A stretch of 64,000 bases of DNA from Candidatus Woesearchaeota archaeon (GCA_030651375.1 JAUSFM010000003.1:184718-248717); one strand, 5' to 3'; shown: positions 7,166 through 44,903, numbered from the stretch's first letter. The notes: generated from the letters alone by a model not told the origin. Numbers and translations are program-made.

Positions 7166-7192
7166 TTGAAACCCGCTGCGCGGAGCGGAACA

Positions 7193-7384
7193 ATGGCAAA
7201 AAATGCATTGCCCCAGTTTGAGGGTTATACAGTCGATCTACGACTTAGACAGTTTAGGAAAATAACAAAAACAAAGATGGAATTTGTTGATTTTTATTCA
7301 GTTAAAGGGGGAAAAATGGTCTCGAGATATATCAACTTTTTGAATGATCAGTTGGAGAGGATTGCCCAATATCAAAAAAATTAA
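7193..7384 (+). CDS. Small hypothetical protein downstream of repeat module
   Basis: ORF 7166..7384; start MAKNALP at 7193 about 30 nt after TATA-like element. Confidence 0.3.
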   Translation: MAKNALPQFEGYTVDLRLRQFRKITKTKMEFVDFYSVKGGKMVSRYINFLNDQLERIAQYQKN

Positions 7385-7404
7385 GAGGAGCTATTAAAGG
7401 GAAT

Positions 7405-9327: not shown

Positions 9328-9328
9328 A

Positions 9329-23150: not shown

Positions 23151-23180
23151 GGTTGTTTCGGTTTTGCCCTTTTTATGTTT

Positions 23181-25142: not shown

Positions 25143-25186
25143 TTCGCTTTATAAATATTATGACTGAAAACAGTGCGAAAATGGCG

Positions 25187-26017: not shown

Positions 26018-26031
26018 CTTAATTTTTGATT

Positions 26032-29000: not shown

Positions 29001-31386
29001 GAGATGCCACTGCCGGCAAACCTTGTTGTGTAGTAATTTGTTGAGCGTATTCCGGCACACTGGAAAGTGCACTCACGACTGAATCAGGCGCGGGCTGGCC
29101 ACTCGCCGCATCAATTATTGTTCCACCGGGAATAACATAAAAGTTGGAGTTCGCAAGCCGTCGGCTTCCTGCAGGAGGAGTGTATGCCGGAGTTGGGAGC
29201 GCAACCGGCCGCGGCGGCGCAGGTTCGCGTTCTTGTGCACCAGCAGAGCCAGCAGGCAACGCGCCGCCAACCGGCGCGCCGGCAAGAGCAGGAGTTGTCT
29301 CGACGGATGCACCGCCGATTTGAGCACGTGCTTCCATAATTTGAGCGCGTTGCGCTGCAGGCAACGCCGAATTTTGCAAGAGCTGAGTAAGCATATCAGC
29401 AGGAACACCAATAAACGGATTTGCTTGAGCAGCAGGAGCAGAGGGTGGAGACGTTGCAGGAGTCGGAGCAGAAGCAAAACTATCATCTGGTTCAAAACTA
29501 ATTTCTTCTCGAGCTGCTGGCTGTTGAGCCGGCGGTGCAGGCTGTTGCGCAACAAACGCAGCATAGACTGATGACTGCTGGTTCGGATTTAAAGATTGTT
29601 TAATTGTTTCATCAAATGCAGTCGTGCAGGTCGGATTTTGGAAGCAAGGAGTATTACTAAATTGCTCGACGACATGCGTTACACAATTATTGTTTCTGCA
29701 ATTGTTCACTGCAGTGGACAAATCTTGTGCTGCTGATGTTCCCTGATCGCGCACCCGAAGTTGTTGAACAATCTGTTCCCGCTGGGTGCCACTCGGAAGG
29801 CCTTGCGGAGGACGCCAGGTATTGTGTTGCGTATCATATGTTTGAAGCTGTGGTGTGCCGGATTCATCTCTGCTAATGTAAGTCCACCCGATTTGCTCCA
29901 TATATATTGCGCCTTGCCCGGTGACTGCGGGACCAGCAGCTGGTGGTGGCGTTGGCGCGGTTGGAAGCGGAGCAGGGCGCGGCTGTTGTTGAGGAGCTTG
30001 AGCGGCAACGACAGGAACAGCAGGTACAGATTGCGAAGGTGCAGCAGTTGCTTCTTGCGCAAAGGTGACCAACTCAGGATTCGACTGGCCGAGGAATCGG
30101 GCAAACGCAGTTTTACATTCAGCGGATGCGCATTGCTCTCGTAATCCAACGACTGATCCTTTCTGACAGTTGAGATCCTGACGTGGATCACCTGCATGAC
30201 AATCAGGCAGCCAGAAGGAAGCAAATTCTTCTGCCAAGCGCTGGGCTTGTTTCTGCGGTGTCTCCGGCGCCATGGATGGTGGATGTGCGGGCGCTGCAGC
30301 TGCTGCTGATTCGGACGGAGCATACTTTGAGGGATTATCAAAGTATTTTCTGTATTCGGCGGTGCACGCATCACCCGCAAGAGTGTACTCTAAACAAAAG
30401 TGGTCTTTTCCGACAGGCGGAAACTCTTGAACAGATGGCAAAAGAGCAGGTTGCGCAGCGACTGCAGTTGAAGACGGTGCCGCGCGCGCACGGGCAAGTG
30501 CACTAGCATATTCTGGCCGCATTATAAGGGTACGTTTCCCCTCTTCATTCATTTTGGTACCATCTGGATAATACACATTTCCTTGCGCGTCAACCAAAAA
30601 TCCTAATCCCTGCATCCGCACAGTTTTGGTAACGGCAGGAGAACCTGCTGATGGTGCCGGTTGCACTGCTGACGATGGAGATGTAGCAACCGATGCAGGA
30701 GCTGCAGACGCTACGGGTGCATTCCCCGCAGTGCCGGAAGAAGTTCCACGCGCCTGCTGAACAGCTACAAGGTATTGAGCACTCGTTCCCAATGTTGTTC
30801 TCAAAACGCGCTCAAACTCAGGGGAGATTCTTTGTTTATCATACGTGTAAAAGTTTCCTTCAGTATCAACATGATACAGGATTGGTTCCCCAGTTGCAGG
30901 ACTTATTCCGTATTGTAACGGCACGAGGTTCTGTTGTGGTGTGGGAGAGGGAATAGCCGAAGCACTCGGCGCTGAAGGTTTTTTTGCTGGCGCAGCGACA
31001 GCTCGTGCCTGAGCAGCTGGTGGAGGCGCAGACGCTGCAGGTTCGGGAATATTCCATTTGCCATCTCTATAAGAATAGGTACGACTGCCATAGCGAACAA
31101 AGACACCGTTACGTGGCGCTTGATTATCGTGAAGAAAGGTATATTCATTCATCAAGTCCTGTTGGGTAACTTGGATTTGTGGTGCTGCACTTTGCCGTGC
31201 AACAAACCCAACAAACATCTGATCCCCCATCCTACTCTCCAGTTTCTGGATAGTGACGAGGGAAAACAGCATCAGCAGAATGACAACCAGTGTCACTGAT
31301 AATTTCTGGTGCGGCAGCAGACGCTGTGAGGGAATGGCTGCTGGCTCGAACTCCTCCCAATTCTGTGGTGACCTGGTTTGTTTCAT
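26032..31386 (-). CDS. Giant surface protein (1784 aa), N-terminal membrane anchor, long Pro/Ala/Gln-rich linkers with repeated Cys motifs, structured C-terminal domain
   Basis: TM LSVTLVVILLMLFSLVTI; repeated NCRNNNCV / DCRTNNNCV / NQCSTNINCM motifs; C-terminal Cys-rich globular region. Confidence 0.7.
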   Translation of the reverse strand: MKQTRSPQNWEEFEPAAIPSQRLLPHQKLSVTLVVILLMLFSLVTIQKLESRMGDQMFVGFVARQSAAPQIQVTQQDLMNEYTFLHDNQAPRNGVFVRYGSRTYSYRDGKWNIPEPAASAPPPAAQARAVAAPAKKPSAPSASAIPSPTPQQNLVPLQYGISPATGEPILYHVDTEGNFYTYDKQRISPEFERVLRTTLGTSAQYLVAVQQARGTSSGTAGNAPVASAAPASVATSPSSAVQPAPSAGSPAVTKTVRMQGLGFLVDAQGNVYYPDGTKMNEEGKRTLIMRPEYASALARARAAPSSTAVAAQPALLPSVQEFPPVGKDHFCLEYTLAGDACTAEYRKYFDNPSKYAPSESAAAAAPAHPPSMAPETPQKQAQRLAEEFASFWLPDCHAGDPRQDLNCQKGSVVGLREQCASAECKTAFARFLGQSNPELVTFAQEATAAPSQSVPAVPVVAAQAPQQQPRPAPLPTAPTPPPAAGPAVTGQGAIYMEQIGWTYISRDESGTPQLQTYDTQHNTWRPPQGLPSGTQREQIVQQLRVRDQGTSAAQDLSTAVNNCRNNNCVTHVVEQFSNTPCFQNPTCTTAFDETIKQSLNPNQQSSVYAAFVAQQPAPPAQQPAAREEISFEPDDSFASAPTPATSPPSAPAAQANPFIGVPADMLTQLLQNSALPAAQRAQIMEARAQIGGASVETTPALAGAPVGGALPAGSAGAQEREPAPPRPVALPTPAYTPPAGSRRLANSNFYVIPGGTIIDAASGQPAPDSVVSALSSVPEYAQQITTQQGLPAVASPPSAARFAVRPPNRVPPGAVPLQDSPYSIDYEGNVYDTDGKVITNDVVAGALRSNPIGQQALAQAQQQRPSINLPPGSAAGVPTEPSAEPQPPRPVTLPTPAPAVPSTPPLNDAQAATRATEISNYCRGQGIDTTTCLSQATTISDCRTNNNCVNALSRLLATSGPAPTPARSAPVPGAVAPVPSRGSPTAASTPPQSLSNADAGALAINLNTYCQQNGFSAAQCRTLAHDPTNQCSTNINCMRVVQELSNQLPAPSSGAPAAGSMPGATPAPVPVPAATERYLVGAGGFDSEEKAKTQCETDHGAGNCARQQTPGGTTSFVFGGTSPAPVPTPSTPPTPPPVAPPTPVPGPTPAPTPAAAAAEAKTLEQIFEPAVSKKGTSPGALKDFVQATYEGTLVCDKDGKCAIDVDQDTKLSATVSGNEIKLEDGTTFTKRADGGIEVRHGDVLTQFVAKDGTTSDLISMGVKEVKTDAAGNIQSVTFERPRSCKNGIILTVCSGGPAEAKYDPATKTFKLEDGTILTPSISGVVLVKNSDGSTSLMAPGPSGAPELLTTLGKETTVTEKDGVVTVLGADGKPLQTIDRTHTENLIITNLGTDGKAESSSHMGIDLNGKPARVFEEFDHEEKTSSIYCDGGVKCGFALGCDDAGVCKTTGRVVSRLGGACTIQSRAGCMVVDEKGNKVEIAEFCKTSGMSEKDCKEKIDSAGSPKLTFFDMVNLANEGVQMGNDIKNFCGLVSDKTKCDGIFGDWFGGEAFLKKLTKTDPVLAGLFTGDWEESMCWKYLDRSNAEQGQEGFLYDLDGQLKLWIAAEKAPMPVPIEEGGLHNQPGMYYRINGEISPGRLCQIDNPPPAENPTKNDIEKAFKNEFLIFTIWLRGPNGETIIDPQKDGNNDNNVFSPRCDSGGITMIGQQTIVRVLPTDYTEICIKFHNPSNLQSFVSDELDGGMFCNTIVQSSPEISSTTVPTGGTPADAQTSATAQLGQIPEIKN

Positions 31387-31425
31387 GCGTTGTCTCTTTT
31401 CTTTTTTGTCTCTTAAATGTTTTTC

Positions 31426-34400
31426 TTAATCACTCAACCCGCGCACTTCTTCCTGCGCAGCAGGCCCGGATACCGATGGTGATGCTGACTGTTGAGGAGC
31501 GCCTTGTTGAGTGAACCCGCGCGCGCCGCTGCTTCGTCGCCCGGCTGCCTCGTCAAAGCGCGGATCATTTTTGAGTTTGTTAAGGATATCTTCGCATGCA
31601 TCCGCGGGCGGATTGAACAGCCCTTTGACCGTGTCGATGATATTTCTGATGCTGTCAATAACGCGGAGCAAGTTGAATGGAAGGAAAATAAAATTACAAA
31701 CAGTACGAGTATTGCCTTCTCCAACCGGTGAGATAATAACATATTTACACGCAATAGTCATTCCAGTAGTTGCCAAAGTCATGGGATTGGTAATGAATTG
31801 TTTCATGATCGCACCGATTTGTTTTTGGATGTGCGCAAAGGGAATGAGCGCAAGGAGTTCTCCGGTTTCCACTTTGCAGGTTTCATACTGATAGACGCGG
31901 TCACAGGTGCTTTTCGGCATGCCTTGGCCGACTTGGTTGTAGAGGCAACTAATGTAGCTGCATTCAATTACTCTGCGGCGTTGGAGATTTTCAAAAATGC
32001 CAGGAATGCACATTGTAAGGTAGCTTAGGTAGAGACTGCCCCGCGGGTTTGCCCATGCAGTCCATTGCGCGGCTGTCTGTTTACGTGGGTCAAGAGAAGA
32101 TGCTTCTTTAGCTGCTTCTTTGAACGTACCACCAAGCTGATCAAGGGATGGCTGTTCGAGCCCGAATTTTTTAAATAATGCGCCGGTTGGCGTCCAGGTG
32201 CAGGTAAGAAAATCACAGGCATCTTGGGCATATGATTTTTGGATAGTATCAGTAAATTTGTTTATCGTGCCGCTGATTGAGCCGAGCGCTACCTCTGCGG
32301 GTTTGAGGATTGGAAAGGCATCAGACAAAACAACCATAACACCGTGAACACCGGCAATTGCCAGGCCAACAGAAGTCAGCCCCTGCAAGATACTGCAAAT
32401 GCTCGTCAAAAAGGTAATAACTTTGTTGACCTTCGTCACAAATGTGCCCATGAGATTGTTTTGCTCGACGTGGTCAACAATTTCATCCCACACGCCGTCG
32501 CTGATGTCCTTAACATTGCCGAGCGGAATTTCCAGAACTGCGGTTGCTTTAGTGACGCCGGATACTTTGTTGCCGTTCTTGCTCATGATGGAAAATTCGC
32601 AGGTCACGACAAACTTTGTTTTTGTTTCAGGAATTTTTCCCGGCCGCAGGTTGAAACGGAGCTTGGCAGTATTTGGTGAGCTTGTGCTGAACATGACTTT
32701 GGTTGCGTCCTGCGCAAAGAAGCCGGCGCTATAGTCTTCACCGGAACAGCTCGTCACATCAACGGCAACCGGTGCAGTGCCCGGTGGTGTTCCTGCGTCA
32801 GGATTTATCTGCACATCAAAGAACACGGCGGTGGTTGCAACCGCAGCGCCGCGGGCGTCAACAATAGGCGAGATAAGAATTGGATTGAGCGTATATTTGG
32901 AAGGCGCAAGCCCTTCAAGCACTGTTTTTCCAAGCCAGTCCTGTGGCGCAAGCTCGTGCACATGGCCCTGCGCATCGGTGTACACAAGGAATGGATCCTC
33001 GACGGTAACCGCTGTTTTGTCGCCGTGTACCAGTGCATTGCCGGCAATATCTTTGGTGCCGGTGAAGGTGGCGCGGAAATCTTTGTTCGTGCCAAGATTA
33101 AATATTTCCCAGTCGCACTGCCAGAGGTTCGGCAGGTTTTCGTTCACGCCGTATCCAGTCATGGCAACAAGCGCGCCGGTTCCGGCGTCAAATGTGGGAC
33201 CAGCAGATTCAGCAGCAGGCGTGGTTGGTTGAGCAGACGATGGAACAGGAGCAGCTGGTACTGCTGTTTGCACTGGCGCAAACGGCTGGCATTTCAGTGC
33301 GGGTTTTGGCGTGCTTGGATTTTCTGCATCAAACGGAATGACCGCAACGGCGTTGTGCGTGCCTGCATCATCGGCCATGGCGATATTTTCTTGAACAATG
33401 AGGCGGAGAATCGCGGTGCCGCCTGCAGCAAGCACCGGCGTGTTTGACGACGAGATAATTTGAGCCTTGACCAAACGGGGAGCATCGTGGTCAACCAGAA
33501 TATCAGCACTGCCGGGCTCCATTTGATTGTCAGCAAGGTCTTTGCCGCGCACCGTGACTAAAACTCGATCTGCCTGCACGCCGCTGATGGTGGTGTTGCA
33601 GAGGAACGCGCCTGCTTCCGGCTGGATGCATGCCTCGGGGTTTTTGTTGTTGATGAGTACGGTTTCTTTTGAAACACCGGCGCCGGTTTCGTCAATGACT
33701 GCAATGAGCGTGTTGCTTGCCGGCCCCAGCACGGGCACGCCGCCAAACGCGCGCGTCGCGGTTATCTCGCGCACTGCCGGCGGCACATCATCGATTTGGA
33801 AGGTGAGCGTTTTGGTTGCGTCGAGATGATTTTTCGCTGCGTCTTCCGCAGAGAGGAAAAGGTTTCGCGTTTTGTCGCCGTCAGGATTCAGCTGCGCATT
33901 GCCAACACAGTCAAAGCGGTGATCGGTTGATTGTTCATCGCGCTGTTCCGGAACGCGCTCTGCGCAGTTCAGCACCACGCTCGGTTCGCCGGCATTGAAT
34001 GAGGCAACTGATGCATTGACACGGCCAATCAAATGAGTGTGGGTGAGGATGGTTGCAACGACTTTTACCTCGACAACACGGTTTGCTACAAAGGAAAGTT
34101 CTTTGACAAGCCCGGCGTCCATTGCGGTGAAGTTTTCTATTTCAGGCGCACGATTGTCTTTGGTGATGTTCACGCAATTTTGTGCCGTGGGAGTGAGCGT
34201 GCCCTGCGCATTGACATAAGAAGAATGAATGTTGCCAAACGCATCCTGCGGCACGGCGCATATCTGGGTGGAAGCGCCATTTGGAAGCGCATCAGCGTTC
34301 AATGAAACAACGGTGTTGTTTGCTGCGCACGCACTGCCGGCGGTTGGCCGCGGCTCAACGTCCTGCGCAACCAGTTCTTGTCCATCACGAGTAAAGAGTT

Positions 34401-35040
34401 TTATTTTTGCAACGCCAACACAGCCCTGCTGGCTCGTGCCGGTGGTGTCAACCGCTGCAACCGTCAGATTAACCGTACCGCTGGAAACACCAGTTGCTGT
34501 CGGGGTTATGTGCTGAACCGTCGGACCGAGTTTGTCGACGAGAATACCGGGGAAAACAGAGTACTGGTTGCCGTTTTGCTGGGCAACGGGGCGTGCAGCG
34601 TCGCAGGATTGGGGAAAGTCTCTTCTGCCGTCAACATTGGCAAGGTTGACACACACGCTGTATCGGTCTTTGTCGTCAATTTTGTTGATGGGCAATGTTA
34701 CGCTACATTCGTACGGGTTTGTCGTGGTACATTGAGAAAAGCGCGCAGTGCCGGGTGAGTTTCTCGTCACCCCGTCAGTATCATTCATCACTTCCAAAAA
34801 GGTGGGAAGCACGGGCGAGGGAGAATCAATTTTGACGCGGATGGTGGTGGCGTCGGTTTCTTTGCGGAATGACTCTTTGCCGTCTCCTCCGCTGATGTGC
34901 ACTTCTTGGAAGGAGATTGCAAAGACATTTGCCGTGTAAAAAGGAAGCGTGAGAATAAGGACGCACATGAAGATGGCTAAGAATCGCTCGAACTGGCCGC
35001 AGCCTTTTTTCCCCGAATAGGGTTGCATGGGTGGTTTCAT
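31426..35040 (-). CDS. Giant secreted surface protein (1204 aa), hypothetical
   Basis: N-terminal signal LAIFMCVLILTLPFYTANVFA; Ig-like beta-rich body; Cys-containing C-terminal domain. Confidence 0.7.
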   Translation of the reverse strand: MKPPMQPYSGKKGCGQFERFLAIFMCVLILTLPFYTANVFAISFQEVHISGGDGKESFRKETDATTIRVKIDSPSPVLPTFLEVMNDTDGVTRNSPGTARFSQCTTTNPYECSVTLPINKIDDKDRYSVCVNLANVDGRRDFPQSCDAARPVAQQNGNQYSVFPGILVDKLGPTVQHITPTATGVSSGTVNLTVAAVDTTGTSQQGCVGVAKIKLFTRDGQELVAQDVEPRPTAGSACAANNTVVSLNADALPNGASTQICAVPQDAFGNIHSSYVNAQGTLTPTAQNCVNITKDNRAPEIENFTAMDAGLVKELSFVANRVVEVKVVATILTHTHLIGRVNASVASFNAGEPSVVLNCAERVPEQRDEQSTDHRFDCVGNAQLNPDGDKTRNLFLSAEDAAKNHLDATKTLTFQIDDVPPAVREITATRAFGGVPVLGPASNTLIAVIDETGAGVSKETVLINNKNPEACIQPEAGAFLCNTTISGVQADRVLVTVRGKDLADNQMEPGSADILVDHDAPRLVKAQIISSSNTPVLAAGGTAILRLIVQENIAMADDAGTHNAVAVIPFDAENPSTPKPALKCQPFAPVQTAVPAAPVPSSAQPTTPAAESAGPTFDAGTGALVAMTGYGVNENLPNLWQCDWEIFNLGTNKDFRATFTGTKDIAGNALVHGDKTAVTVEDPFLVYTDAQGHVHELAPQDWLGKTVLEGLAPSKYTLNPILISPIVDARGAAVATTAVFFDVQINPDAGTPPGTAPVAVDVTSCSGEDYSAGFFAQDATKVMFSTSSPNTAKLRFNLRPGKIPETKTKFVVTCEFSIMSKNGNKVSGVTKATAVLEIPLGNVKDISDGVWDEIVDHVEQNNLMGTFVTKVNKVITFLTSICSILQGLTSVGLAIAGVHGVMVVLSDAFPILKPAEVALGSISGTINKFTDTIQKSYAQDACDFLTCTWTPTGALFKKFGLEQPSLDQLGGTFKEAAKEASSLDPRKQTAAQWTAWANPRGSLYLSYLTMCIPGIFENLQRRRVIECSYISCLYNQVGQGMPKSTCDRVYQYETCKVETGELLALIPFAHIQKQIGAIMKQFITNPMTLATTGMTIACKYVIISPVGEGNTRTVCNFIFLPFNLLRVIDSIRNIIDTVKGLFNPPADACEDILNKLKNDPRFDEAAGRRSSGARGFTQQGAPQQSASPSVSGPAAQEEVRGLSD

Positions 35041-35073
35041 GGGTGTTCTTTTTTTATAGTTTATTGTAGTCCA

Positions 35074-37392
35074 TCATCGTGGTTGCAGGAGCTGGCGAAC
35101 ATTCTGATTGTTGCTGGCGTCTTTTTGCATCACATCGTACATCTGGAGGTCAGTCACCATGCGTTCACGTGCAGATCTTGACGCAGTTGCCATAATAAGG
35201 GTGGTGCCGACGACACGCGTATCAGGCACATCGCGCATGTTCAGCACGAGCGTTGATAACGTCAGCTCGTTCGGTGAAGTAAGCATCTGCGGAGTGATGT
35301 CAATGGTTGCAGTAATGACCCCTTCACTAAAGGGCGCGTTGAGTTTTGTTTCATCCATGGGTGTGGGAACAGCACAACCGATAGTTACATCTTCAACACC
35401 GATCGCTTCAAGCACGCCGCTAAACACTCCACCGGGGCCTGAAAACGTGAGTGCCTCGCCGCAACAGTCGGGACATGAGGGGATGCGCATTGATTCAAAG
35501 AGGAGCGTGCTGAACGTGACGGTATATCGTCCGGGAGCAAGTTGTACTGGCGCGCGTTGGGTGCCTGAAACTTGGGCCAACGCAGAATACGGCGCTTCTC
35601 CGTCTGCAGCCACCCGATCAAACGTGACAATTACTTTTTCCGTTTCCAGCAAATCTTTTTGTGTTCGTGAAAGTTCCCATAATGATTCTGGCTTAGTTTT
35701 CGCATTGCGCACGGCAGCAATCCTACCTTCGTTTTTGTCATAGGTGTATTTTTTGACGCGAATAGTTTTCTCGATAAGGGGCAGGAGTTTTACGTCTTTG
35801 GCCACCTGTTTGGTAAGCGAAGAAGTCAGTACCACGCTCGCGCCTAAATAGCCGGGCGCAGAAACTTTAAGATCACCAGAAGCGCGCGGAAATTTCGAGG
35901 TGAGTGTACCATCAGATTTCGATACGCCCATTGAACACGACGTACCGGAATTGAACTGTACTTCGGCGTTCGGTACGCTGCGCCCCGTCGCTGCATCAGT
36001 CACTTTAACGGTCACCGGCGCTGATGTTTTTTGATTTTCATTGCAGAGCAGTGAAAAATCATCAAAGCCATGAATCGGCGACGATGACTTGTATGCTGAA
36101 GTCAACGGCTCATTGTCCCGCACATTCGCTTCCAGCGCAAAGAGGAAATCGTAGCCCTTGTTGTTGAACGCCGTTGAATCAGTGACCTGCGTGAGAATAG
36201 GAACAGAAATATCGTAGGGTGTCTGGTACGTGCGCAGTGTTGTCGGAAGGTCGCTAAGAAGCATCTGCACAATGGAAGCGCCGGGCAGTGAAACTTCATT
36301 GGTCGGGCCAATAGAATCTCCTTTCACGACGTCAAAATAGGATTTCCAGGACGGCAGGTAGTTGAATGTAACGGCGTACCGCTTCGCGTCGCTATCCGGC
36401 CCCGACATATCAAGACTGCTAAGATATGAATACAATCCACGGCGAACCGGATCGTTCAAAATAGTTGGATCTGCCTGTTCAAACGGAATATAATTTTTTG
36501 TTCCCTTGACTGGCACTTTTTGAATTGTGTAGCTCACAATGGATTCAACCGTCGGTTTCAGCGCTGCTTCGCTCCATGTTTTTTTTGTGCCACCGTGCTG
36601 GCTTGCGGAAAATGGCGGCAGGTCGTTATCGAGGCCCGCGCGCGCAGACAGCGCAAGAATAATCACTTTTTCAAACGATTGTCCTTGAGTGATTTTCGAC
36701 GTCAACTGTTGGGCAAACGCAAGGAGTTTTCCCAAGGCAACATCGTGCGTTGCGCGAAAATTTTTCAGGTCATACACCAGATTTTGTTTGGTAACGTGCA
36801 CCGCCAAGGTTACATCCACCACCACGCTGTTCGCCGTGAGAATAGTTGATGCCTTGGGAACACCTGCGGTCGAAACAGTGAGGCCCTGCGATGCAAACGA
36901 GGAGAAATCAAGGCAGCCCTGCAGATTTTTTTCAACATAGGCATTGATTTGGTTTTGAATGTCATCCTGGCTCGGCACCTGATCCTTGAATGAAATTCTG
37001 GACGGAGCGTTATTGGGAGAAGCAAGGTGATGCCAGTAGGGAATGTACCAGTTTGTGCCAAACGTCAGCGCTTCAGAATCAGTTGGGCGTTCATTTGTCG
37101 TGTCAAACTGAAACGCGCGCGGGCTAAAGTCGGTAGACGTCGGATCAATGTAGCCTGCATGCCCGCCCAGTTCAGTGATTGCTTTTTTTGAGATGGTTTC
37201 AACACACTGGGTGATAAATGAATTCAGGGGAGCAAGCTCAAACGGCACTTCCTGCACCAGAGCAGGCGCTTCCTGCGGCGCAAAGGTTTTTTGTTCGCGG
37301 GCTGAAAACAAGAAAATTGCTGCAACAAGAAGGAGTACGCCAATAATTATGAATATGGTGACTTGTCCTCTTTTTGAATGCACGCGATCCAC
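35074..37392 (-). CDS. Large type IV pilin-like protein with class III signal peptide
   Basis: N-terminus MDRVHSKRGQVTIFIIIGVLLLVAAIFLF; homologous to 23181..25142 (FVQQCLDEQ vs FITQCVETI; PLWYF vs NWYIPYW). Confidence 0.65.
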   Translation of the reverse strand: MDRVHSKRGQVTIFIIIGVLLLVAAIFLFSAREQKTFAPQEAPALVQEVPFELAPLNSFITQCVETISKKAITELGGHAGYIDPTSTDFSPRAFQFDTTNERPTDSEALTFGTNWYIPYWHHLASPNNAPSRISFKDQVPSQDDIQNQINAYVEKNLQGCLDFSSFASQGLTVSTAGVPKASTILTANSVVVDVTLAVHVTKQNLVYDLKNFRATHDVALGKLLAFAQQLTSKITQGQSFEKVIILALSARAGLDNDLPPFSASQHGGTKKTWSEAALKPTVESIVSYTIQKVPVKGTKNYIPFEQADPTILNDPVRRGLYSYLSSLDMSGPDSDAKRYAVTFNYLPSWKSYFDVVKGDSIGPTNEVSLPGASIVQMLLSDLPTTLRTYQTPYDISVPILTQVTDSTAFNNKGYDFLFALEANVRDNEPLTSAYKSSSPIHGFDDFSLLCNENQKTSAPVTVKVTDAATGRSVPNAEVQFNSGTSCSMGVSKSDGTLTSKFPRASGDLKVSAPGYLGASVVLTSSLTKQVAKDVKLLPLIEKTIRVKKYTYDKNEGRIAAVRNAKTKPESLWELSRTQKDLLETEKVIVTFDRVAADGEAPYSALAQVSGTQRAPVQLAPGRYTVTFSTLLFESMRIPSCPDCCGEALTFSGPGGVFSGVLEAIGVEDVTIGCAVPTPMDETKLNAPFSEGVITATIDITPQMLTSPNELTLSTLVLNMRDVPDTRVVGTTLIMATASRSARERMVTDLQMYDVMQKDASNNQNVRQLLQPR

Positions 37393-37464: not shown

Positions 37465-37974
37465 TTATTTAAAAAGTTTCAGCACCGTAATGCTGATGGC
37501 AAGCAGCAGCACCAGCAGGCAGAGCAGGATATTCACAAACAGCCGGTCGGCAACGCCGAAATGGTCCGTGTAATACGGGTTGGTGAAGTATATTTTTTTT
37601 TGGAACACGTACCAGAGCACCGTGCCGTTCATCAAAAAAGAAAAGAGGGATAGCAGTAAAAATAATTCAAACGGCACCAGCTGAAATTGGAGAAGGTAAT
37701 AATGAAGCACCAAGGAATATACGAGCACAAAGGAAAAACACACCAGCGATGCAGCCCACACCCATGGTTTGCGCGCGAAGAAACCATACAGCACGGCGAC
37801 GAGCCAAACAACCAACACGAGTTCGGCAGCAGGAAGCAGTGGAATTGCACCAAGGGTTGTTGGCGCAGCAGCCATGTAAGCAAGCGTCACAATGCCTGCG
37901 ATAATCAGCAGTGCAGTGTATTCCAACAGGCCGCGCAGGCCTGCGTGGAGCTTTTGAGGAGGAGATTTTTGCAT
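37465..37974 (-). CDS. Small polytopic membrane protein (4 TM)
   Basis: 169 aa; first gene of the minus-strand locus; AT-rich TATA-like stretch (tttataaatttt) about 30 nt upstream. Confidence 0.5.
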   Translation of the reverse strand: MQKSPPQKLHAGLRGLLEYTALLIIAGIVTLAYMAAAPTTLGAIPLLPAAELVLVVWLVAVLYGFFARKPWVWAASLVCFSFVLVYSLVLHYYLLQFQLVPFELFLLLSLFSFLMNGTVLWYVFQKKIYFTNPYYTDHFGVADRLFVNILLCLLVLLLAISITVLKLFK

Positions 37975-38067: not shown

Positions 38068-40266
38068 TTACTGATTCTCGCTCAACTTCTTCCGCGAGCG
38101 AATCTGGCCAATGATTTTCGGCTGCAACTCTTCCGGCAGTTTCTCAAAGAGCTGATCAACAATTGATGAAGTGCCCCTGCCTTCAGTTGCTGATCGTAAT
38201 TCGGATTCAAAACCGAACATTTCTCCAACCGGCATTTTTGCCTTGACCTGTGCGGTGCCGTATTCGGTCGTCATGTCAAGCATTTGGCCGCGCTTGTTGG
38301 CAATCAGTTTTGAAATTTCACCGACGTATTCTTCAGGCGCGTCAAACATCATAATCTGTTTTGGCTCAAAGATAACCGGCGAAGCAGTCATCATCGCGCC
38401 CTTGATACCCTCGCGAACAGCAGGATACATTTGCCCCGGGCCGCGGTGGATGGCGTCCTCGTGCAGTTTACAGTCGGTGAGCGTGACCATGACATTGACA
38501 CAGGGCTCGCGGGCCAGCGGGCCTTGGTTCATGACGTCCTCGAACATGTCGAGCACAAGCTCCATGATTTCAGTAATGTACACAATGCCGCGCGTGCCGT
38601 CGAGGAACAGATTGCCATGGAAAATGTCCTTGACCTTGTCGGCAACTTTTGTTTCCATGCCGGTGGCGACCAGCTTGTCGCGCATTTCCAGATTTTTCTT
38701 CTTGACGCGGCCTTCAGGAAGATGGCCGTTTCTAATGAGTTCTTGAATTTCCGCAGGCAGTGGTTCTACAATGAAATAAAGCTTGTTGTGCTTGTTGGGT
38801 GATTTTCCCTCGAAGTCCTGCGGCGCTTTTTTCAGAATGGACTCGCGGTACACCACAATCGGCGGGCTGGTCTTGATGGCGAATTTTCGTTCAGTGATGA
38901 TTCTGTTTTCGATGATTTCGAGGTGGAGCTCGCCCATGCCGCTGATGAGGTTCTCGCCGGTTTCCTGATTGATTTCAACCTTGATGGATGGGTCTTCTTT
39001 TGCGACTTTGCGGAGAATTTCAACGAGCTTAGGAATGTCCTGCTGGCTCACGGGCTGAATTGATTTGGTAATGACCGGCTCAAAGATGTGTTTCAGCTCT
39101 TCGAACGGCTGTTCCGGCTCAAGAGTGATTGTTTCGCCGGCATAGCCGGAGACGCCGCCGAGAGCGATAACGTTTCCGGCAGGAGCTTCTTCAACTGATT
39201 CTGGCTTGACGCCCATGTAGGAATACACCTGACTCACGCGCTGATTTGTTTTGGCGCCGTTGAGATACACGGTCATGCCTTCTTTGACCGTGCCGCTAAA
39301 AAGCCGGCCTGCTGAAATTTCTCTGCCGAACTTTGGATCAATAGTAATGCGCGTGATGACAAAGCCGACTTTGCCGTTCGGATTACAGGTAACGAGATCC
39401 TGGCCAAACGGTGAGTCTATTTCACCGCGCCAGATATGGGGAATACGATATGCCTGCGCCTCTTTCGGATTGGGCATGTGCTTGATGACCATGTCGAGCA
39501 CGACTTCAAATAGCGGCGCATTTTTCCAAATCCATTCTTGGCGCTCTTCTTCGCTGACTTCGCCCGAGAAAACGCGGAGAATGTCTTTGAAGGTGACATT
39601 TTTCTTTTTCATGTACGGCAGGGACAACGCCCAGTTTTCGCGCGCAGAGCCAAAGCATACGCTGCCGTCGACAATGTTGACTTTGAATTTTTCCTTGAAT
39701 TCCTGCTCGGCGACACGCTCGACAAGCTGGTTGAAGAGGACAATAAGTTTTGATAAGCGTTCCTGAATTTGTTCCGGAGAAAGTTTCAGCTCGAGAATCA
39801 GCCGGTCGCATTTGTTGATGAACAAAACTGGCTTGACGCGCTCGCGCAGCGCCTGCTTGACGACGGTCTCGGTCTGCGGCATGATGCCTTCAACCGCGCA
39901 GATAAGAACAATAGTGCCGTCGATAGCGCGCATGGCGCGCGTGACATTGCCGCCGAAATCAACGTGGCCCGGCGTGTCAATCATATTAATGAGATAATCT
40001 TGGCCACCAAAGGTGTGGCACATGGAAAGGTTTGCAGCATCAACCGTCATCAGACGTTCCTGCTCGTCGAGGTGGAGCCATGTTGCCATGCCGCCTTCCA
40101 AACTGCCGGCTGCTTTTCTGCTCATGAAGCCGGCTGCAGCGAGAAGATTGTCGGTCAGCGCGGTCTTGCCGTGGTGAATGTGCGCAGAGGTGCAAATATT
40201 TCTGATGTGCTCCGGCTGGTGCATCAGCCGTTTTGCTTTTTCAATGAGTTCGACGTCGGTTGCCAT
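38068..40266 (-). CDS. Archaeal elongation factor 2 paralog A (diphthamide loop retained; variant G1 AHIHHGKT)
   Basis: AHIHHGKTAL, DTPGHVDF, NKCDRL, and domain IV HEDAIHRGPGQ; start at MATD (40266) or 40314. Confidence 0.85.
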   Translation of the reverse strand: MATDVELIEKAKRLMHQPEHIRNICTSAHIHHGKTALTDNLLAAAGFMSRKAAGSLEGGMATWLHLDEQERLMTVDAANLSMCHTFGGQDYLINMIDTPGHVDFGGNVTRAMRAIDGTIVLICAVEGIMPQTETVVKQALRERVKPVLFINKCDRLILELKLSPEQIQERLSKLIVLFNQLVERVAEQEFKEKFKVNIVDGSVCFGSARENWALSLPYMKKKNVTFKDILRVFSGEVSEEERQEWIWKNAPLFEVVLDMVIKHMPNPKEAQAYRIPHIWRGEIDSPFGQDLVTCNPNGKVGFVITRITIDPKFGREISAGRLFSGTVKEGMTVYLNGAKTNQRVSQVYSYMGVKPESVEEAPAGNVIALGGVSGYAGETITLEPEQPFEELKHIFEPVITKSIQPVSQQDIPKLVEILRKVAKEDPSIKVEINQETGENLISGMGELHLEIIENRIITERKFAIKTSPPIVVYRESILKKAPQDFEGKSPNKHNKLYFIVEPLPAEIQELIRNGHLPEGRVKKKNLEMRDKLVATGMETKVADKVKDIFHGNLFLDGTRGIVYITEIMELVLDMFEDVMNQGPLAREPCVNVMVTLTDCKLHEDAIHRGPGQMYPAVREGIKGAMMTASPVIFEPKQIMMFDAPEEYVGEISKLIANKRGQMLDMTTEYGTAQVKAKMPVGEMFGFESELRSATEGRGTSSIVDQLFEKLPEELQPKIIGQIRSRKKLSENQ

Positions 40267-40318
40267 ATAATCCCTGTGAAGAGTTTGATAAACCCTTGAA
40301 TACTCACCGTCCAACGCG

Positions 40319-41071
40319 ATGATTTATAAAGTTTGCGATTGGTTTAAGAAGCTGCCTATTTTTCTGCGGACAATGGCGCCCACACCACCAACCTATGCCG
40401 GCCTTCGCGAACAATACCAATCTGAGTTCGGCCACAGCAGCATAGCAATGGTTGAGCCACTTGATCTTTTTATTTTAGAACATTTTTGCACATCGATATA
40501 CCAGCCATCTGAACATCCACAGGCAATGTTAGTGGGGCCGTTCAGCGTGCGGGAAGGAACCGTGCTGCGGGCATTTCATAAACACATGTATGGACGTCAA
40601 GTAAAAGTTGCAGGATGCAATAATTTTACACCGGCACGCCGACTGAGTGTTCAAAACGATTTAGATGTTGCACTGTTCGACCCGCTTTTTGGCGACGCCA
40701 CATATTCGCACACGTGGATGACGCCATGCGCTGATGGTGATTTTCCAGATGTTCAGTTTGACATGAGTTATATTCGAAATCCTGATTTGGTGAATATGCA
40801 AAAGTGGGCTGCGGTGTTTGCAAAGGCGTACGAATTCACCAAACCCAAAGGGATTGTAGTGACGTTGGTTCGGAAGAATGACGTGGACAAATATAAAGAA
40901 CTGGAACGAGCAGTGAAACATGAGTATGATATGACGCCCATCATCTCAACACCAACAGGGATAGAAAAACTATCGGGAGTGAATAGAGATATTGCGGAAT
41001 TGTGCCATTATCTGGGTGTTTTTAAGAGGGAACCTACTGTTTCTGATGTTGAACAAAGAGACGCTGCGTGA
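40319..41071 (+). CDS. Hypothetical protein between the EF-2 paralogs
   Basis: 250-aa ORF, divergent orientation; weak DPLFG motif only. Confidence 0.4.
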   Translation: MIYKVCDWFKKLPIFLRTMAPTPPTYAGLREQYQSEFGHSSIAMVEPLDLFILEHFCTSIYQPSEHPQAMLVGPFSVREGTVLRAFHKHMYGRQVKVAGCNNFTPARRLSVQNDLDVALFDPLFGDATYSHTWMTPCADGDFPDVQFDMSYIRNPDLVNMQKWAAVFAKAYEFTKPKGIVVTLVRKNDVDKYKELERAVKHEYDMTPIISTPTGIEKLSGVNRDIAELCHYLGVFKREPTVSDVEQRDAA

Positions 41072-41093
41072 ACACTGAATACCCAACACCGAA

Positions 41094-43238
41094 TTAATAC
41101 ATCCCCTTTCTCTTTCGTATCTCTGCAATAAGTTTCTGATGTGCACCGGCGGCAACCGGCTCAAACAATTGTGCAACAACTGCGCTCGTCGCGCGCCCTT
41201 CGGTTGCAGAACGTAACTCCGAGGAAAAACCAAACAGCGCACTCACCGGCAGTTTTGCCGTGATGCGCACCATGCCTTGTTCATGAAACAGCTCAATCAT
41301 TTGGCCGCGCTTGTTGCCTACAATTTTTGAAAGTGTGCCGGTATATTCTTCCGGCGCTTCAAACAACATGACTTGCTTCGGCTCGAGCAGCACGGGCCCG
41401 GCAGCAAGAATCGCCGCGCGAATCCCATCGCGCACTGCAGGATAGACTTGCACCGGACTGTTTTCAGCGTCGGCAGAGACGGTGTAATGAACAAGTGTCA
41501 CGAGCAAATTCGCGCACGGCTCGCTGCACAACGGGCCGGAACGCATCACTTCCTCAAACATATCAAGCACCAGCGGTGCGGACGACGGAAGAAGCGGCTC
41601 ACGGCACACGAAAATGTTGCCGTGAAAAATGGAGGCAATGTGTTCAGCAGCAGATGATTCCATTCCTGCGGCAATGAGTTTTTTTGAGATGTCTTTATTC
41701 TGTGCGGTTACTCGTCCGGGATAAACGCCACCGCTTGTGAGGAGCGCACCAATCGCAGGAGCCAGCGGCTCTACGGTAAAATGAAAAGTGAAATGCTTGT
41801 CCGGCGATATTCCTTCGCCTGATACTGGTAATGTATGGGTAACGGATTCGCGGTGCACCACAATAGGCGGGGACGTGATAACCGTGATGTGCTTGTCCGT
41901 TTTGATGCGGTTTTCAATAACATCAAGGTGCAGTTCGCCCATGCCGCTGATAAGAATTTCACCGGTTTCTTTGTTGATGTCAACTTTGATGCCCGGATCT
42001 TCTTTCTGCACCTGTTCAAGCACTTCAATCAGGTGTGGCAATTCACGCGCAACGCGCGGCTCAATAGATTTTGTTATGACTGGTTCTGCTGGGATCATGC
42101 GCTCAAACGGCTCGCCTGCTTCGCGGTCACTGATGGTGTCGCCGGGATACGCGCTGATGCCGGCGATGCCGACGATATTTCCGGCGGATGCCGAGTCAAT
42201 AAGCTCGCGCTTTGCGCCGTTGTAGATGAAGAGCTGTTGGATACGCGCCTGCTGGTGTGAGTGTACATTCCACACCGTCGCACCGTGACGGAGAGTGCCG
42301 GAAAAAAGCCTGCCTGCAGCAAGGTCGCCGAGCTGGGGATCAACAATTATTTTCGTCACGACAAAACAAACCGAGCCGTTGGAATCGCACGACAAAAGCG
42401 CGCGGCCCTGCGCCGACGACACGTCGCCGTGCCAAATTTTTGGAATCCGGTACGCCTGCGCTGCTGCCGGATCAGGAAGGTGGTGCACGGCCATCGACAA
42501 CACTACGCGGTGCAGCGGCGCCTTGTCAGCAAATGTTTTTACGCTTTCGTTGCGGTACGCGTCAATGACATCCTTGAACGCAAGCCCGTGCTGCTGCATG
42601 TAGGGCAACGAAAGTGCCCATGTGTGCAGCGCACTGCCAAACGCAACGCTGCCATTCTGCACTTGGACATGCCATTGTTCGTTGTACGGCGGCTCGGCAA
42701 TCTGGGAAATGAGGCGGTTGACGTCGCGAATAAGGTGAAGAAAGCGTTCCTGAATCTGCGCTGCAGACAATTGTTGCTGCACAATGAGCCGGTCAACTTT
42801 GTTGATAAAAAGAACGGGTTTCACGCGCTCGCGCAGCGCCTGTCGGAGCACGGTCTCGGTCTGCGGCATCACACCCTCAACCGCGTCAACAAGCACAATG
42901 CAGCCGTCAACCGCGCGCATGGCACGTGTCACATCGCCGCCGAAATCCACATGGCCTGGGGTGTCAAGCAGGTGAATGAGATATTCATCAGTGTCAACCG
43001 TGTGCACCATTGAAACAGCGGCAGCGTCGATGGTAATGCCGCGCGCCTGCTCGTCAGGGCGAAAATCAAGTTGGAGTACTTTGCCGGCGAGCTCTTTGGA
43101 AATCATGCCGGCACCGGCAAGAAGATTATCAGAAAGCGTTGTCTTGCCGTGGTCAATGTGCGCGCAGATGGCGATGTTCCTTATTTTTTTCACGTCAGAC
43201 GCGCAGCGCATGACTTTATCAACCATCTTTTTGGCCAT
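41094..43238 (-). CDS. Archaeal elongation factor 2 paralog B (canonical G1 motif, diphthamide-His loop replaced)
   Basis: AHIDHGKTTL, DTPGHVDF, NKVDRL; domain IV tip reads SADAENSPVQVYPA instead of HxDxxHRG. Confidence 0.85.
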   Translation of the reverse strand: MAKKMVDKVMRCASDVKKIRNIAICAHIDHGKTTLSDNLLAGAGMISKELAGKVLQLDFRPDEQARGITIDAAAVSMVHTVDTDEYLIHLLDTPGHVDFGGDVTRAMRAVDGCIVLVDAVEGVMPQTETVLRQALRERVKPVLFINKVDRLIVQQQLSAAQIQERFLHLIRDVNRLISQIAEPPYNEQWHVQVQNGSVAFGSALHTWALSLPYMQQHGLAFKDVIDAYRNESVKTFADKAPLHRVVLSMAVHHLPDPAAAQAYRIPKIWHGDVSSAQGRALLSCDSNGSVCFVVTKIIVDPQLGDLAAGRLFSGTLRHGATVWNVHSHQQARIQQLFIYNGAKRELIDSASAGNIVGIAGISAYPGDTISDREAGEPFERMIPAEPVITKSIEPRVARELPHLIEVLEQVQKEDPGIKVDINKETGEILISGMGELHLDVIENRIKTDKHITVITSPPIVVHRESVTHTLPVSGEGISPDKHFTFHFTVEPLAPAIGALLTSGGVYPGRVTAQNKDISKKLIAAGMESSAAEHIASIFHGNIFVCREPLLPSSAPLVLDMFEEVMRSGPLCSEPCANLLVTLVHYTVSADAENSPVQVYPAVRDGIRAAILAAGPVLLEPKQVMLFEAPEEYTGTLSKIVGNKRGQMIELFHEQGMVRITAKLPVSALFGFSSELRSATEGRATSAVVAQLFEPVAAGAHQKLIAEIRKRKGMY

Positions 43239-43296: not shown

Positions 43297-43779
43297 TTAT
43301 TCCAGCACATGCACGTCATGTACGCTCTTGTAGGTGTGCAGCTCATTCGGCGAGAACCAGAGCGCGATTTCTGTTTTTGCCGACACCGGGCTGTCGGATG
43401 CGTGAATAATATTTTTCAGCCCGATGTCTTTTGCGTCAGCGTATGCGTAGCTCATGTGGGAGAAGTCTCCTCGAATCGTGCCGGGCGGCGCCGCTTTCGG
43501 CTCGGTGGGGCCGACAATTTTTCGCACGAGCGCAGCGGCCTCAACGCCTTCGAGGACGAGTGCAAAAACGGGGCCTTGGGTGAGCATGGCTTCAAGCGCC
43601 GGATAAAATTTTTTCTGGATGTGTTCAGCGTAATGTTGTTTTGAGAATGCAGCGTCCACCCAGACCATTTTCCCGCCAACAATTTTCAGCCCGGCGTTTT
43701 CAAAGCGTGTGATAATTTGGCCGACGAGGCCGCGCTGGACGCCATCCGGTTTAATGAGCACGAGGGTGCGCTGGATCAT
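43297..43779 (-). CDS. ndk: Nucleoside diphosphate kinase
   Basis: LVLIKPDGVQRGLVGQII...NIIHASDS active-site His motif. Confidence 0.9.
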   Translation of the reverse strand: MIQRTLVLIKPDGVQRGLVGQIITRFENAGLKIVGGKMVWVDAAFSKQHYAEHIQKKFYPALEAMLTQGPVFALVLEGVEAAALVRKIVGPTEPKAAPPGTIRGDFSHMSYAYADAKDIGLKNIIHASDSPVSAKTEIALWFSPNELHTYKSVHDVHVLE

Positions 43780-44090
43780 TGCTTCGCCTGTGGTTGTTTG
43801 TCTTGATCGCTACCGTGTTTTGTATCTTTTTCTTTTTTCGGCGCGGGCTTTTGCTTTTGCTCTTGTTTTTGCTCTTTATTTTTTTCTTTCGATGCCGCCG
43901 CAGTTGCCGCGCTGACACTCTTCGCCTTGCGGTAGGTTTCAGTCCATTTGACTTCCCAGCCTTTGTGCCGAAGCTTCAGCTGGCCTTTCTGGCATTTAGA
44001 AGAACAAAAGTAAAAGATGCGCGCGTCGTTCTGCACATACGTCATGCCGGTGCCGCGGGGTATTTCGTTGCTGCAAAAAGAGCATTTCAT
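43776..44090 (-). CDS. rpl24e: Ribosomal protein L24e
   Basis: CSFCSNEIPRGTGMTYVQNDARIFYFCSSKC zinc ribbon plus Lys-rich tail. Confidence 0.85.
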   Translation of the reverse strand: MKCSFCSNEIPRGTGMTYVQNDARIFYFCSSKCQKGQLKLRHKGWEVKWTETYRKAKSVSAATAAASKEKNKEQKQEQKQKPAPKKEKDTKHGSDQDKQPQAKQ

Positions 44091-44185
44091 AGGTAATCCC
44101 TCAATGGATGGAGTGAATCGAATTTTTAAGTTTTATGGTACACGGTGTGTGCGCCAAGGTACGATGTACGAGTTACGATGTACGA

Positions 44186-44563
44186 TTATGATTTGTCGCT
44201 GCGGCCCTTGCGGTCCAATGGTCGTGCCTCAAATTCAGTCTCGCGCAGCATGAGTATGTCACCGAGGCGAACCGGACCTTTGACGTTTCTTCGGATGATT
44301 TTGTCGTGGTCGCGGCCAGCGAGAATCTTGACACGGACTTGGGTTGCTTCGCCCCGTGCGCCGGTGCGTGCAACAAGCTCTTCAACACGCGCTGGCACTG
44401 CTTCAGTAAAATAGACTTTTCCTTTTGTTACTTCCTCAACAACCGAGCCGCCGTCACGGTGCTTGCCGCGCTCGCTCATCTTTGCAGAAGGCCTTGAGCC
44501 GCCGGCACCTGCGCCTGCGCTGCCGCCTGCACTGCCCATCCGGTTGTCTCGTTGATCAGCCAT
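44186..44563 (-). CDS. rps28e: Ribosomal protein S28e
   Basis: [60 protein letters not shown] matches S28e core. Confidence 0.85.
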
Positions 44564-44588
44564 AGAGTATCACACAGTATCGCACTAT

Positions 44589-44903
44589 TTATTTGAGTTG
44601 GGCAATAAGCTTTTTTGCTTCGCCTTCCTGTACCACAACAACTGCTGCGGTTCCTACCTGAAGCCCTGCTGCTGCGCCGAGCTCTTCCTTGGAAGCAACT
44701 TCAGCGAACGGCACGCCTTTTTCTTTTGCCAGCACCGGAAGGTGCATAACAATTTCAGGCGGAGAAACATCTTTTGCAATCACGACGAATTTTGCCAAGC
44801 CTTTTTCCAGTGCCTTGGTTGCTTCGTTGGAGCCCTTGCGGATTTTGCCGGTGGTCCGTGCAACTTCAATAATTTCTAAGGATTTGTCGCCTTTGTCTGC
44901 CAT
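44589..44903 (-). CDS. rpl7ae: Ribosomal protein L7Ae
   Basis: GSNEATKALEKGLAKFVVIAKDVSPPEIVMHLPVLAKEKGVPF matches L7Ae/L30e fold family. Confidence 0.85.
   Translation of the reverse strand: MADKGDKSLEIIEVARTTGKIRKGSNEATKALEKGLAKFVVIAKDVSPPEIVMHLPVLAKEKGVPFAEVASKEELGAAAGLQVGTAAVVVVQEGEAKKLIAQLK

Follow-up and report, generated by a model that had tools for sequence, protein, structure and literature searches.

A tip-degenerate EF-2 paralog next to an EF-2 with an altered GTPase centre in a Woesearchaeota genome

Why should a tiny archaeon of symbiotic type carry two genes for elongation factor 2 (EF-2) side by side? For a long time, archaeal EF-2 (aEF-2) was taken to be a marker that occurs in single copy and always carries diphthamide, until Narrowe et al. 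2018 (PMC6143161) broke this rule with the paralogs named aEF-2p, known from Asgard archaea, Korarchaeota (Kor 1/3) and some Bathyarchaeota. The question now arises for a stretch of 64,000 nucleotides from Candidatus Woesearchaeota archaeon (GCA_030651375.1, JAUSFM010000003.1:184718-248717; the whole stretch is called the window below), in which two EF-2 genes, A and B, lie in tandem (Table 1). A first-pass annotation saw in them an old duplication with complementary motif losses. The answer that we favour is a different one: B, which is not a copy of A, is probably a lineage-specific ribosomal GTPase that does not translocate and that accompanies the translocase A.

Both genes were found as open reading frames (ORFs), all motifs quoted for them were confirmed in the sequence, and the start of A is corroborated by homologues that open with the same MATD motif. 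The two proteins are identical at 361 of 724 positions (50%, with 69% similarity and E = 0 in BLASTP), the codon-aligned genes at 60.4% overall and at 44% of the third positions, and the longest blastn piece shared by them extends over 433 nt at 71%. Both exceed the curated cut-off (738.45 bits) of TIGR00490, the NCBIfam equivalog model for aEF-2, with 909.8 bits for A and 845.3 bits for B, and both stay below the NCBIfam cut-offs for EF-G (292-299 bits, cut-off 659), EF-G2 (157-180, cut-off 890) and tet_protect (165-173, cut-off 775). The five EF-2 domains of Pfam (GTP_EFTU, D2, EFG_III, EFG_IV and EFG_C) are present in each, the EFG_IV match being weak in B (33 bits vs 77 in A). They are old, divergent members of the EF-2 family. 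As the annotation had held, the half-identical proteins do not reflect an assembly repeat: a duplication created during assembly is excluded by the divergence of the DNA and of its third positions, and the gene order of the window recurs on an independent Logan assembly (run SRR13727527). That EF-2 genes of two organisms were joined by an assembly or binning error has a vanishingly small probability. Although the closest canonical relatives of A and B belong to different EF-2 types, as described below, the same junctions recur both on the independent assembly and on four contigs of relatives that come from other samples, and the GC content at third codon positions (GC3) is similar in A, B and the adjacent NDK gene. 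The related contigs with the order NDK-B-A include an NCBI metagenome-assembled genome (GCA_053532235.1).

What distinguishes B lies at the tip of domain IV. In EF-2, the tip loops of this domain extend to the decoding centre, where they touch the codon-anticodon helix and guard the reading frame, and they are needed for translocation (Narrowe 2018, PMC6143161). A has everything that a translocase needs in domain IV, since HEDAIHRGPGQ and SPNKHNK are both present, as the annotation had pointed out for the former. It had also described B as devoid of the diphthamide-acceptor His; the alignment, in which B reads SADAENSPVQ, bears this out and reveals that the first His of the loop is lost as well. 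The His loop is equally absent from four relatives (P0002, P0003, P0004 and P0006), the only ones above 60% identity. They are 60-72% identical to B and all occupy the same tandem position, and a metagenome scan for further B-type genes gave none above 58% full-length identity. All four lack the diphthamide His and have an altered loop 2, while AHIDHGKT, RGITID, DTPGH and NKVD are kept. The order (L7Ae-S28e-L24e-)NDK-B-spacer-A is seen in the window (with L001), L003, L004 and L005, and in L002 gene A is cut by the contig end. Even between these close relatives the B-type tips vary (SADA-ENS, SADADERS, SADADERG, DDDLTNRG and -QDARILD). The tip of B is neutral to acidic, His-free and poorly constrained. 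A scaffold persists around it, consisting of the central Asp, the segment ...PAQxYPAVRDGIR and, in loop 2, SPxK...TF. The GTPase set of B is complete (P-loop, Mg-binding Thr, the catalytic His of DTPGH, and NKxD).

B evolves three to four times faster than A and is under relaxed but clearly purifying selection in five genomes. Ratios of nonsynonymous to synonymous change (dN/dS), obtained by the Nei-Gojobori method for the same genome pairs in A and B, with dS near saturation for most pairs, amount to 0.13-0.20 for B (0.126 in the least saturated pair), whose proteins are 60-73% identical in these pairs, and to 0.04-0.07 for A, which is 87-94% identical to its orthologues in L003-L005; NDK and L7Ae, at 0.03-0.08, resemble A. 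Canonical Woesearchaeota EF-2 has 100 positions in the G domain and 33 in domain IV with an invariance of 95% or more; 84 and 17 of these, respectively, are kept throughout the five B sequences, and the few that are changed in every B include both His of HxDxxHRG. In an AlphaFold2 (AF2) model of B all five domains are folded, with a mean predicted local distance difference test score (pLDDT) of 85.7 and values of 84-91 in the tip blocks, and the model matches archaeal EF-2 crystal structures at template modelling (TM) scores of 0.84-0.87. These data largely refute the notion that B is a decaying, functionless relic of a transferred or duplicated EF-2, which we consider very improbable. The fast rate, the loss of key tip residues and a long insertion in L004 would fit such decay, but in five genomes whose synonymous sites are saturated the ORFs are intact (714-759 aa), and the low dN/dS, the retention of the G-domain residues in all five sequences and the confident fold prediction speak against it.

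Gene A is peculiar in another way. Its P-loop has a His for the canonical Asp, a G1 variant that the annotation had treated as a loss tied to the pair. This view had to be abandoned, as AHIHHGKT is shared by 116 of the best 120 homologues of A (66-72% identical) and a protein of this kind is the sole EF-2 at the locus in 35 genomes. All 120 homologues have ERL[MLI]TVD in switch I and all 120 a canonical diphthamide loop; the remaining four carry an intein inside the P-loop. Inteins at this position (Intein_splicing/LAGLIDADG in Pfam) lengthen several EF-2 proteins of this kind from other Woesearchaeota to 930-1250 aa (L023, L027, L028, L030 and L055; P0123, P0131 and P0155). The change in switch I, which had escaped the annotation, consists of ...ERLMTVD with a 3-residue insertion in A, vs ...ARGITID in B; the catalytic His (DTPGH) is retained in A. 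We refer to the combination of AHIHHGKT with ERL[MLI]TVD as H-type and to the canonical AHIDHGKT/RGITID as D-type. Twelve columns separate the two, each state being found at 93% or more in its type (D31H, T36A, S38T, G44A, L62T, D63W, G72L, I75V, D107N, V178F, K306R and G368A in A numbering), and the switch I insertion goes with the H-type substitutions. The G domain accounts for ten of the 12 columns, and nine of these belong to the P-loop, switch I or switch II or adjoin them.

Loci were sampled by pattern-based scans. The scan of one genome per GTDB species, with EF-2 genes counted within +/-10 kb, gave 33 H-type and 47 D-type loci from Woesearchaeota/Pacearchaeota, 80 in all, and each of them had a single EF-2 within this distance; 69 more complete D-type loci from JGI metagenomes were also all single copy. 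The 35 genomes with H-type as sole EF-2 at the locus comprise these 33 representatives of GTDB species together with L008 and L091. For both types the usual order is L7Ae-S28e-L24e-NDK-EF2-EF1alpha-S10, and L008 (H-type) and L006 (D-type) have the same synteny. Since an H-type EF-2 stands alone at the same locus as a D-type EF-2 elsewhere, the two are positional orthologues in different lineages, and the H-type is evidently sufficient for life. H-type sequences are monophyletic at 96-100% in bootstrapped neighbour-joining trees, with the A clade nested among them as sister to P0122 (100 of 100 bootstraps); no B is present at the locus of P0122 itself. Because A combines a complete tip with housekeeping-level constraint, it is best read as the ordinary translocase of the organism.

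The same characters bear on the descent of B. Each of the five B sequences has the D state throughout the 12 diagnostic columns and is without the switch I insertion. B is 54-61% identical to D-type proteins, 45-54% to H-type proteins and 50% to A. Neighbour-joining trees (corrected p-distances, 100 bootstraps) recovered monophyly of A with B in none of 100 replicates, and of H-type with B likewise in none; when computed on domains I-III, they place B within the radiation of Woesearchaeota EF-2 (61-83%). Judged from these states and trees, B is not a copy of A and descends from an EF-2 with the ancestral Asp/Gly centre. A recent tandem copy of A is thereby ruled out, and with it goes the claim that B is a duplicate of A and that the two suffered complementary losses. 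What stands of the division of labour proposed in the annotation is the best reading given above, a non-translocase B beside a translocase A, as the tip of B is lost and the gene is under purifying selection in five genomes; the reciprocal losses after duplication do not stand. A D-type Woesearchaeon may have been the donor from which B entered the EF-2 locus, or B may be a remnant of a duplication older than the H-type stem; we consider either origin acceptable, the second requiring several losses because A is nested within the H-type. A compositional sign of recent transfer was sought in GC3, which is similar in A, B and NDK and thus uninformative on this point.

What, then, might B do? With its complete GTPase machinery and preserved fold, B should dock at the factor-binding site of the ribosome and hydrolyse GTP there. 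The charge, the missing His and the weak constraint of its tip argue against its holding tRNA and mRNA; B would be unable to hold the codon-anticodon helix and hence would not be a faithful translocase. Members of the EF-2 family without tip loops, such as Tet proteins and aEF-2p, are regarded as GTP-dependent, non-translocating ribosome factors (Narrowe 2018, PMC6143161). B might likewise serve a non-translocating task, either on ribosomal subunits or on ribosomes whose A site is empty. Candidate tasks are those that would need the factor body only: release of aIF6 from the 50S subunit in the manner of EFL1, splitting or rescue of ribosomes, and hibernation or occupancy of idle ribosomes. In Sulfolobus, aIF6 is released from 50S subunits by the aEF-2 GTPase (PMC8024482). 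Any single one of these tasks, if named as the task of B, is unlikely to be the right one, and all of them are candidates only.

Several points weigh against our interpretation of B beyond the candidate status of its task. The diphthamide His is dispensable for viability in yeast, so that its loss alone is no proof of lost translocase activity. Some contact with the A site may persist in B, given that the Lys of loop 2, the central Asp and the scaffold of the loop are still there. Neighbour-joining trees are prone to long-branch effects, and B is a long branch. The EF-2 census counts loci and not genomes, and a third EF-2 in the genome of the window, or a D-type gene elsewhere in H-type genomes, is possible. 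In an alternative reading, B is a diphthamide-free back-up translocase, less accurate than A but immune to ADP-ribosylation by diphthamide-targeting toxins, and would protect a symbiont exposed to them. The absence of the acceptor His from a protein with full fold, GTPase centre, loop 2 Lys and central Asp would agree with this, differences in the tip loops between close relatives are what an arms race would predict, and toxin avoidance has been discussed for parabasalids (Narrowe 2018, PMC6143161). However, tips that vary as freely as ENS, ERS, ERG, NRG and ILD argue against a constrained contact at the decoding centre, the first His is lost too, as is Arg-Gly in the window, and the locus offers no toxin gene or immunity context, which makes a back-up translocase decidedly unlikely.

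Our preferred reading, a non-translocating B, leaves the altered centre of A to be considered on its own. In M. nitroreducens EF-2·GMPPCP crystal structures, Asp31 (in A28HIDHGKT) and the Gly69 carbonyl (in R68GITIDS) make up the protein half of what is predicted to be a monovalent-cation site, which Kuhle and Ficner proposed to be a catalytic cofactor of translational GTPases (as applied to aEF-2, PMC8244253). Both protein ligands are replaced in A, by His31 and Leu72, and B retains the Asp and the Gly. Among 449 EF-2 family sequences, the P-loop/switch I pair is Asp/Gly in 291, His/Leu in 128, His/Gln in one and Asp with a residue other than Gly in 20. His/Gly never occurs, all 129 His sequences being without the switch I Gly.

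The coupled change is also found outside the Woesearchaeota clade. A Thermoplasmata EF-2 cluster (P0246, 136 members) has His with Leu and a canonical domain IV; its nearest representative, the Poseidoniia sequence P0244, is Asp/Gly, and the change in P0246 looks convergent with the Woesearchaeota H-type. The paralog P0259 has His/Gln on an otherwise D-type background. As P0246 and P0259 each have a His/non-Gly pair, the coupled change is, on the distribution of the motifs, of at least three origins: the Woesearchaeota/Pacearchaeota H-type, P0246 and P0259. The cation site may have been remodelled in the H-type, with the His possibly supplying a positive charge in cis; a comparable trend in P-loop NTPases is that Arg/Lys fingers took over from K+ (PMC6310460). 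EF-G-2 of T. thermophilus (PDB 1WDT), a GTPase of the translocase family which is also without this Asp and Gly, still drives poly-Phe synthesis (PMC8244253), and by analogy may serve as a precedent that active sites like that of A can work. It differs from A in being bacterial, in lacking the catalytic His and in being an extra copy in Thermus, whereas in H-type archaea the variant is the sole EF-2 at the locus. No mention of the H-type motif was found in the searchable literature. A large archaeal clade translates with an EF-2 in which both proposed protein ligands of the cation are replaced, and this finding, on which the cation-cofactor model for translational GTPases can be put to a natural test, may matter more than the paralog pair.

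Tip-degenerate EF-2 proteins are not restricted to the B clade. A profile search of 1.84 billion cluster representatives for EF-2-like proteins without tip loops matched Asgard proteins (P0266 from Helarchaeota, P0267 from Odinarchaeum and P0272 from Heimdallarchaeota) and, near Woesearchaeota EF-2, P0248, P0252, P0254, P0257 and P0259. When all degenerate paralogs were used for a profile search, canonical D-type EF-2 dominated the matches and no new paralog came to light. In L089 the order is L7Ae-S28e-L24e-NDK-EF2(H-type)-x-paralog-EF1alpha-S10, with the EF-2 pair at 4188..9611; the paralog is a P0257-type protein of 686 aa, and P0257 keeps the Asp/Gly site. L172 and L173 have L7Ae-S28e-L24e-EF2(H-type)-P0259 (6483..10598 in L172, equal to 2137..6252 in L173), where P0259 is 623 aa long and has the P-loop His. 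L090 shows P0254-EF1alpha-S10 with its upstream side cut off, and the contigs of P0252 and of a P0248-like gene in L159 are too short to reveal a partner. The paralogs are 42-48% identical to each other and to B. A single ancient DPANN family of EF-2 paralogs made up of B, P0248, P0252, P0254, P0257 and P0259 was considered and rejected, since this grouping receives 86-91% with all columns and 3-17% when domains IV-V are omitted; separate origins are assumed for this reason. No shared derived indel uniting B with the other degenerate paralogs was found, and their grouping probably results from long-branch or convergent-loss attraction.

A degenerate paralog was found beside a canonical-tip EF-2 in three lineages, namely the window clade, L089 and L172/L173. 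The partner is H-type in all three, and a second EF-2 copy was found at 0 of about 117 D-type loci. The association is suggestive, with a chance probability of roughly p = 0.02-0.06, three events and uneven sampling. It invites a truly reciprocal subfunctionalisation, a broader form of the annotation's idea, in which the H-type with its rebuilt GTPase centre would have lost a second EF-2 job that a companion with ancestral centre and dispensable tip performs, so that the two copies would need each other. The Asp/Gly site kept in B and P0257 would suit such a companion, and aEF-2 has a second known job in the release of aIF6 (PMC8024482). Yet 35 H-type loci do without an adjacent paralog, P0259 is itself His/Gln and would supply no ancestral cation site, three events from a non-uniform sample are few, and the paralogs are not sisters of the H-type (0 of 100 bootstraps). 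We therefore judge mutual dependence to be rather improbable. A further proposal links two claims, both of which would have to hold: that the H-type EF-2 is cation-independent, using a side chain of its own for K+/Na+, and that tip-degenerate paralogs arise or persist specifically beside it, taking over a second EF-2 task given up by the rebuilt centre, for example the release of aIF6 on free 50S subunits. As a whole this is a long shot.

Among known systems, B comes closest to aEF-2p (PMC6143161); the annotation had remarked that EF-2 paralogs with a modified diphthamide loop have been discussed for some archaeal lineages. Both are a second EF-2 gene beside a bona fide aEF-2, keep G1-G5, have neither the diphthamide loop with its acceptor His nor loop 2 conserved, evolve at an accelerated rate and are predicted to be GTP-dependent, non-translocating ribosome factors. 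However, domains I-III ally B with the EF-2 of Woesearchaeota, at a great distance from the Asgard proteins P0266, P0267 and P0272 (37-38% identity), and this identity and the tree position rule out its membership in the Asgard aEF-2p family. The partner EF-2 in Asgard archaea and Korarchaeota carries R702T and E660K/R, whereas A keeps HxDxxHRG with its Arg and is changed in the GTPase centre; the host phylum is DPANN. B is best interpreted as an analogue of the Asgard and Korarchaeota aEF-2p with an independent origin. An aEF-2p-like paralog that, from its sequence affinities, arose independently in DPANN is new, as no such paralogs were known before from this group.

The diphthamide genes set the two cases further apart. 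Among 337 archaeal genomes, paralogs were reported from those with an absent or incomplete dph set and from no others (PMC6143161). The Asgard and Korarchaeota paralogs accompany the loss of dph genes, whereas Woesearchaeota, taken as a group, possess them; none lies within the 64-kb window, which says nothing on the rest of the genome. Since A keeps a perfect diphthamide loop beside B, the formation of paralogs would not have to follow dph loss. For the Woesearchaeota group, too, EF-2 is unsafe as a single-copy marker of completeness or phylogeny.

Other relatives are more remote. Canonical archaeal EF-2 proteins (P. horikoshii 5H7J, M. nitroreducens 6U45 and M. smithii 6Q2D) share the five-domain fold and TIGR00490 with A and B, but A differs from them by His/Leu for Asp/Gly and by the switch I insertion, and B by the absence of the two tip His. 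EFL1/Ria1 and Snu114 are likewise EF-2-derived GTPases that left translocation for another task on the ribosome or on a ribonucleoprotein; EFL1, acting with SBDS, releases eIF6 from 60S subunits, a job that aEF-2 itself does for aIF6 in Sulfolobus (PMC8024482). These are, however, eukaryote-specific clades (PMC6143161), Snu114 structures match the B model at TM scores of 0.57-0.58 only, and the likeness to B is functional, with no specific affinity in sequence, although the trees included no EFL1 sequence. Tet(M) and Tet(O) are EF-G paralogs in which the domain IV tip loops are not conserved and which use GTP on the ribosome without translocating (PMC6143161), but they are bacterial, and B reaches 165 bits against the tet_protect cut-off of 775.

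The surroundings of the pair are conventional on one side. The L7Ae-S28e-L24e-NDK cluster upstream of B precedes EF-2 in most Woesearchaeota loci, and the best homologues of A and B carry the names Candidatus Woesearchaeota or Nanoarchaeota, which marks the window as DNA of a DPANN archaeon of Woesearchaeota type. From a TATA-like pattern match in the gap between NDK and B (Table 1), B probably has its own promoter. The hypothetical gene that the annotation placed between A and B on the opposite strand is real as an ORF. It has no match in Pfam, NCBIfam or PADLOC, and in L002-L005 nothing homologous to it separates B from A: the spacer is empty in L005 and holds unrelated small genes in L002-L004. 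Lacking a counterpart in related loci, the ORF is an insert and not a functional partner, and as a partner it was ruled out. A VapBC pair (PIN and VapB) lies between NDK and the B-type gene in L002 (2607..3232) and L003 (1632..2278), and small insertions seem to accumulate at the EF-2 locus.

Table 1. Features of the EF-2 locus, with positions counted from the first letter of the window
Feature	Position	Strand	Remarks
Gene A	38068..40266	-	ORF, ATG start, 732 aa; H-type aEF-2, presumed housekeeping translocase
A G1/P-loop AHIHHGKT, residues 28-35	40162..40185	-	His31 in place of the predicted cation-binding Asp
A switch I GSLEGGMATWLHLDEQERLMTVD, residues 54-76	40039..40107	-	3-residue insertion; Leu72 in place of Gly; Mg-binding Thr kept
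A domain IV loop 2 SPNKHNK, residues 489-495	38782..38802	-	canonical
A diphthamide loop HEDAIHRGPGQ, residues 602-612	38431..38463	-	canonical HxDxxHRG, Arg kept
Intervening ORF	40319..41071	+	250 aa; variable insert, specific to the window
Gene B	41094..43238	-	ORF, 714 aa; divergent EF-2 paralog (aEF-2p-like)
B G1 AHIDHGKT, residues 26-33	43140..43163	-	canonical
B switch I DEQARGITID	43026..43055	-	canonical
B loop 2 SPDKHFT, residues 478-484	41787..41807	-	altered; SP.K and the following TF kept in all B-types, His/Asn positions vary
B tip loop SADAENSPVQ, residues 588-597	41448..41477	-	degenerate, for HEDAIHRGPAQ; both His lost, here also Arg-Gly; central Asp kept
TATA-box-like element TTTATAAA	43261..43268	-	23-30 nt upstream of the B ATG, in the 58-nt gap after NDK; pattern match only
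Upstream context	43297..44903	-	L7Ae 44589..44903, S28e 44186..44563, L24e 43776..44090, NDK 43297..43779

On the other side, directly downstream of A, the window contains a 169-aa multi-pass membrane ORF (37465..37974, minus strand) without a family match; L003, L004 and L005 have it at the corresponding place (63-74% identity), and L041 has it too. In the window it is followed by giant ORFs of 2263, 653, 276, 1784, 1204 and 772 aa (16359..37392, minus strand), presumably surface proteins. These have no family match, the three largest not having been scanned directly and the 1204-aa ORF having none in precomputed annotation; the 772-aa ORF has a sub-threshold match to CarboxypepD_reg (25.7 bits, cut-off 32.3). 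Further on, from about 6000 to 16300, the GC content falls to 0.33-0.42 from about 0.50. This stretch encodes an HNH endonuclease, a Schlafen-group-3/DUF2075-type helicase (PDC-S41/AbiO/Nhi-like in PADLOC), a MazG-like protein, a pair of HEPN and nucleotidyltransferase proteins (PDC-M05A/B) and a DUF2779/Cas4-like nuclease, and is probably a defence or mobile island.

Beyond the ribosomal protein genes, a 740-aa ORF (51063..53285, plus strand) encodes a bacterial-type sigma-70 factor with regions 1.2, 2, 3 and 4 and a C-terminal helix-turn-helix, which scores 461 bits with the NCBIfam model RpoD PRK05658 (cut-off 555) and 355 bits with that of the anti-phage sigma factor MzaA (cut-off 800). 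This gene, odd for an organism without a bacterial RNA polymerase, is also present in the independent Logan assembly.

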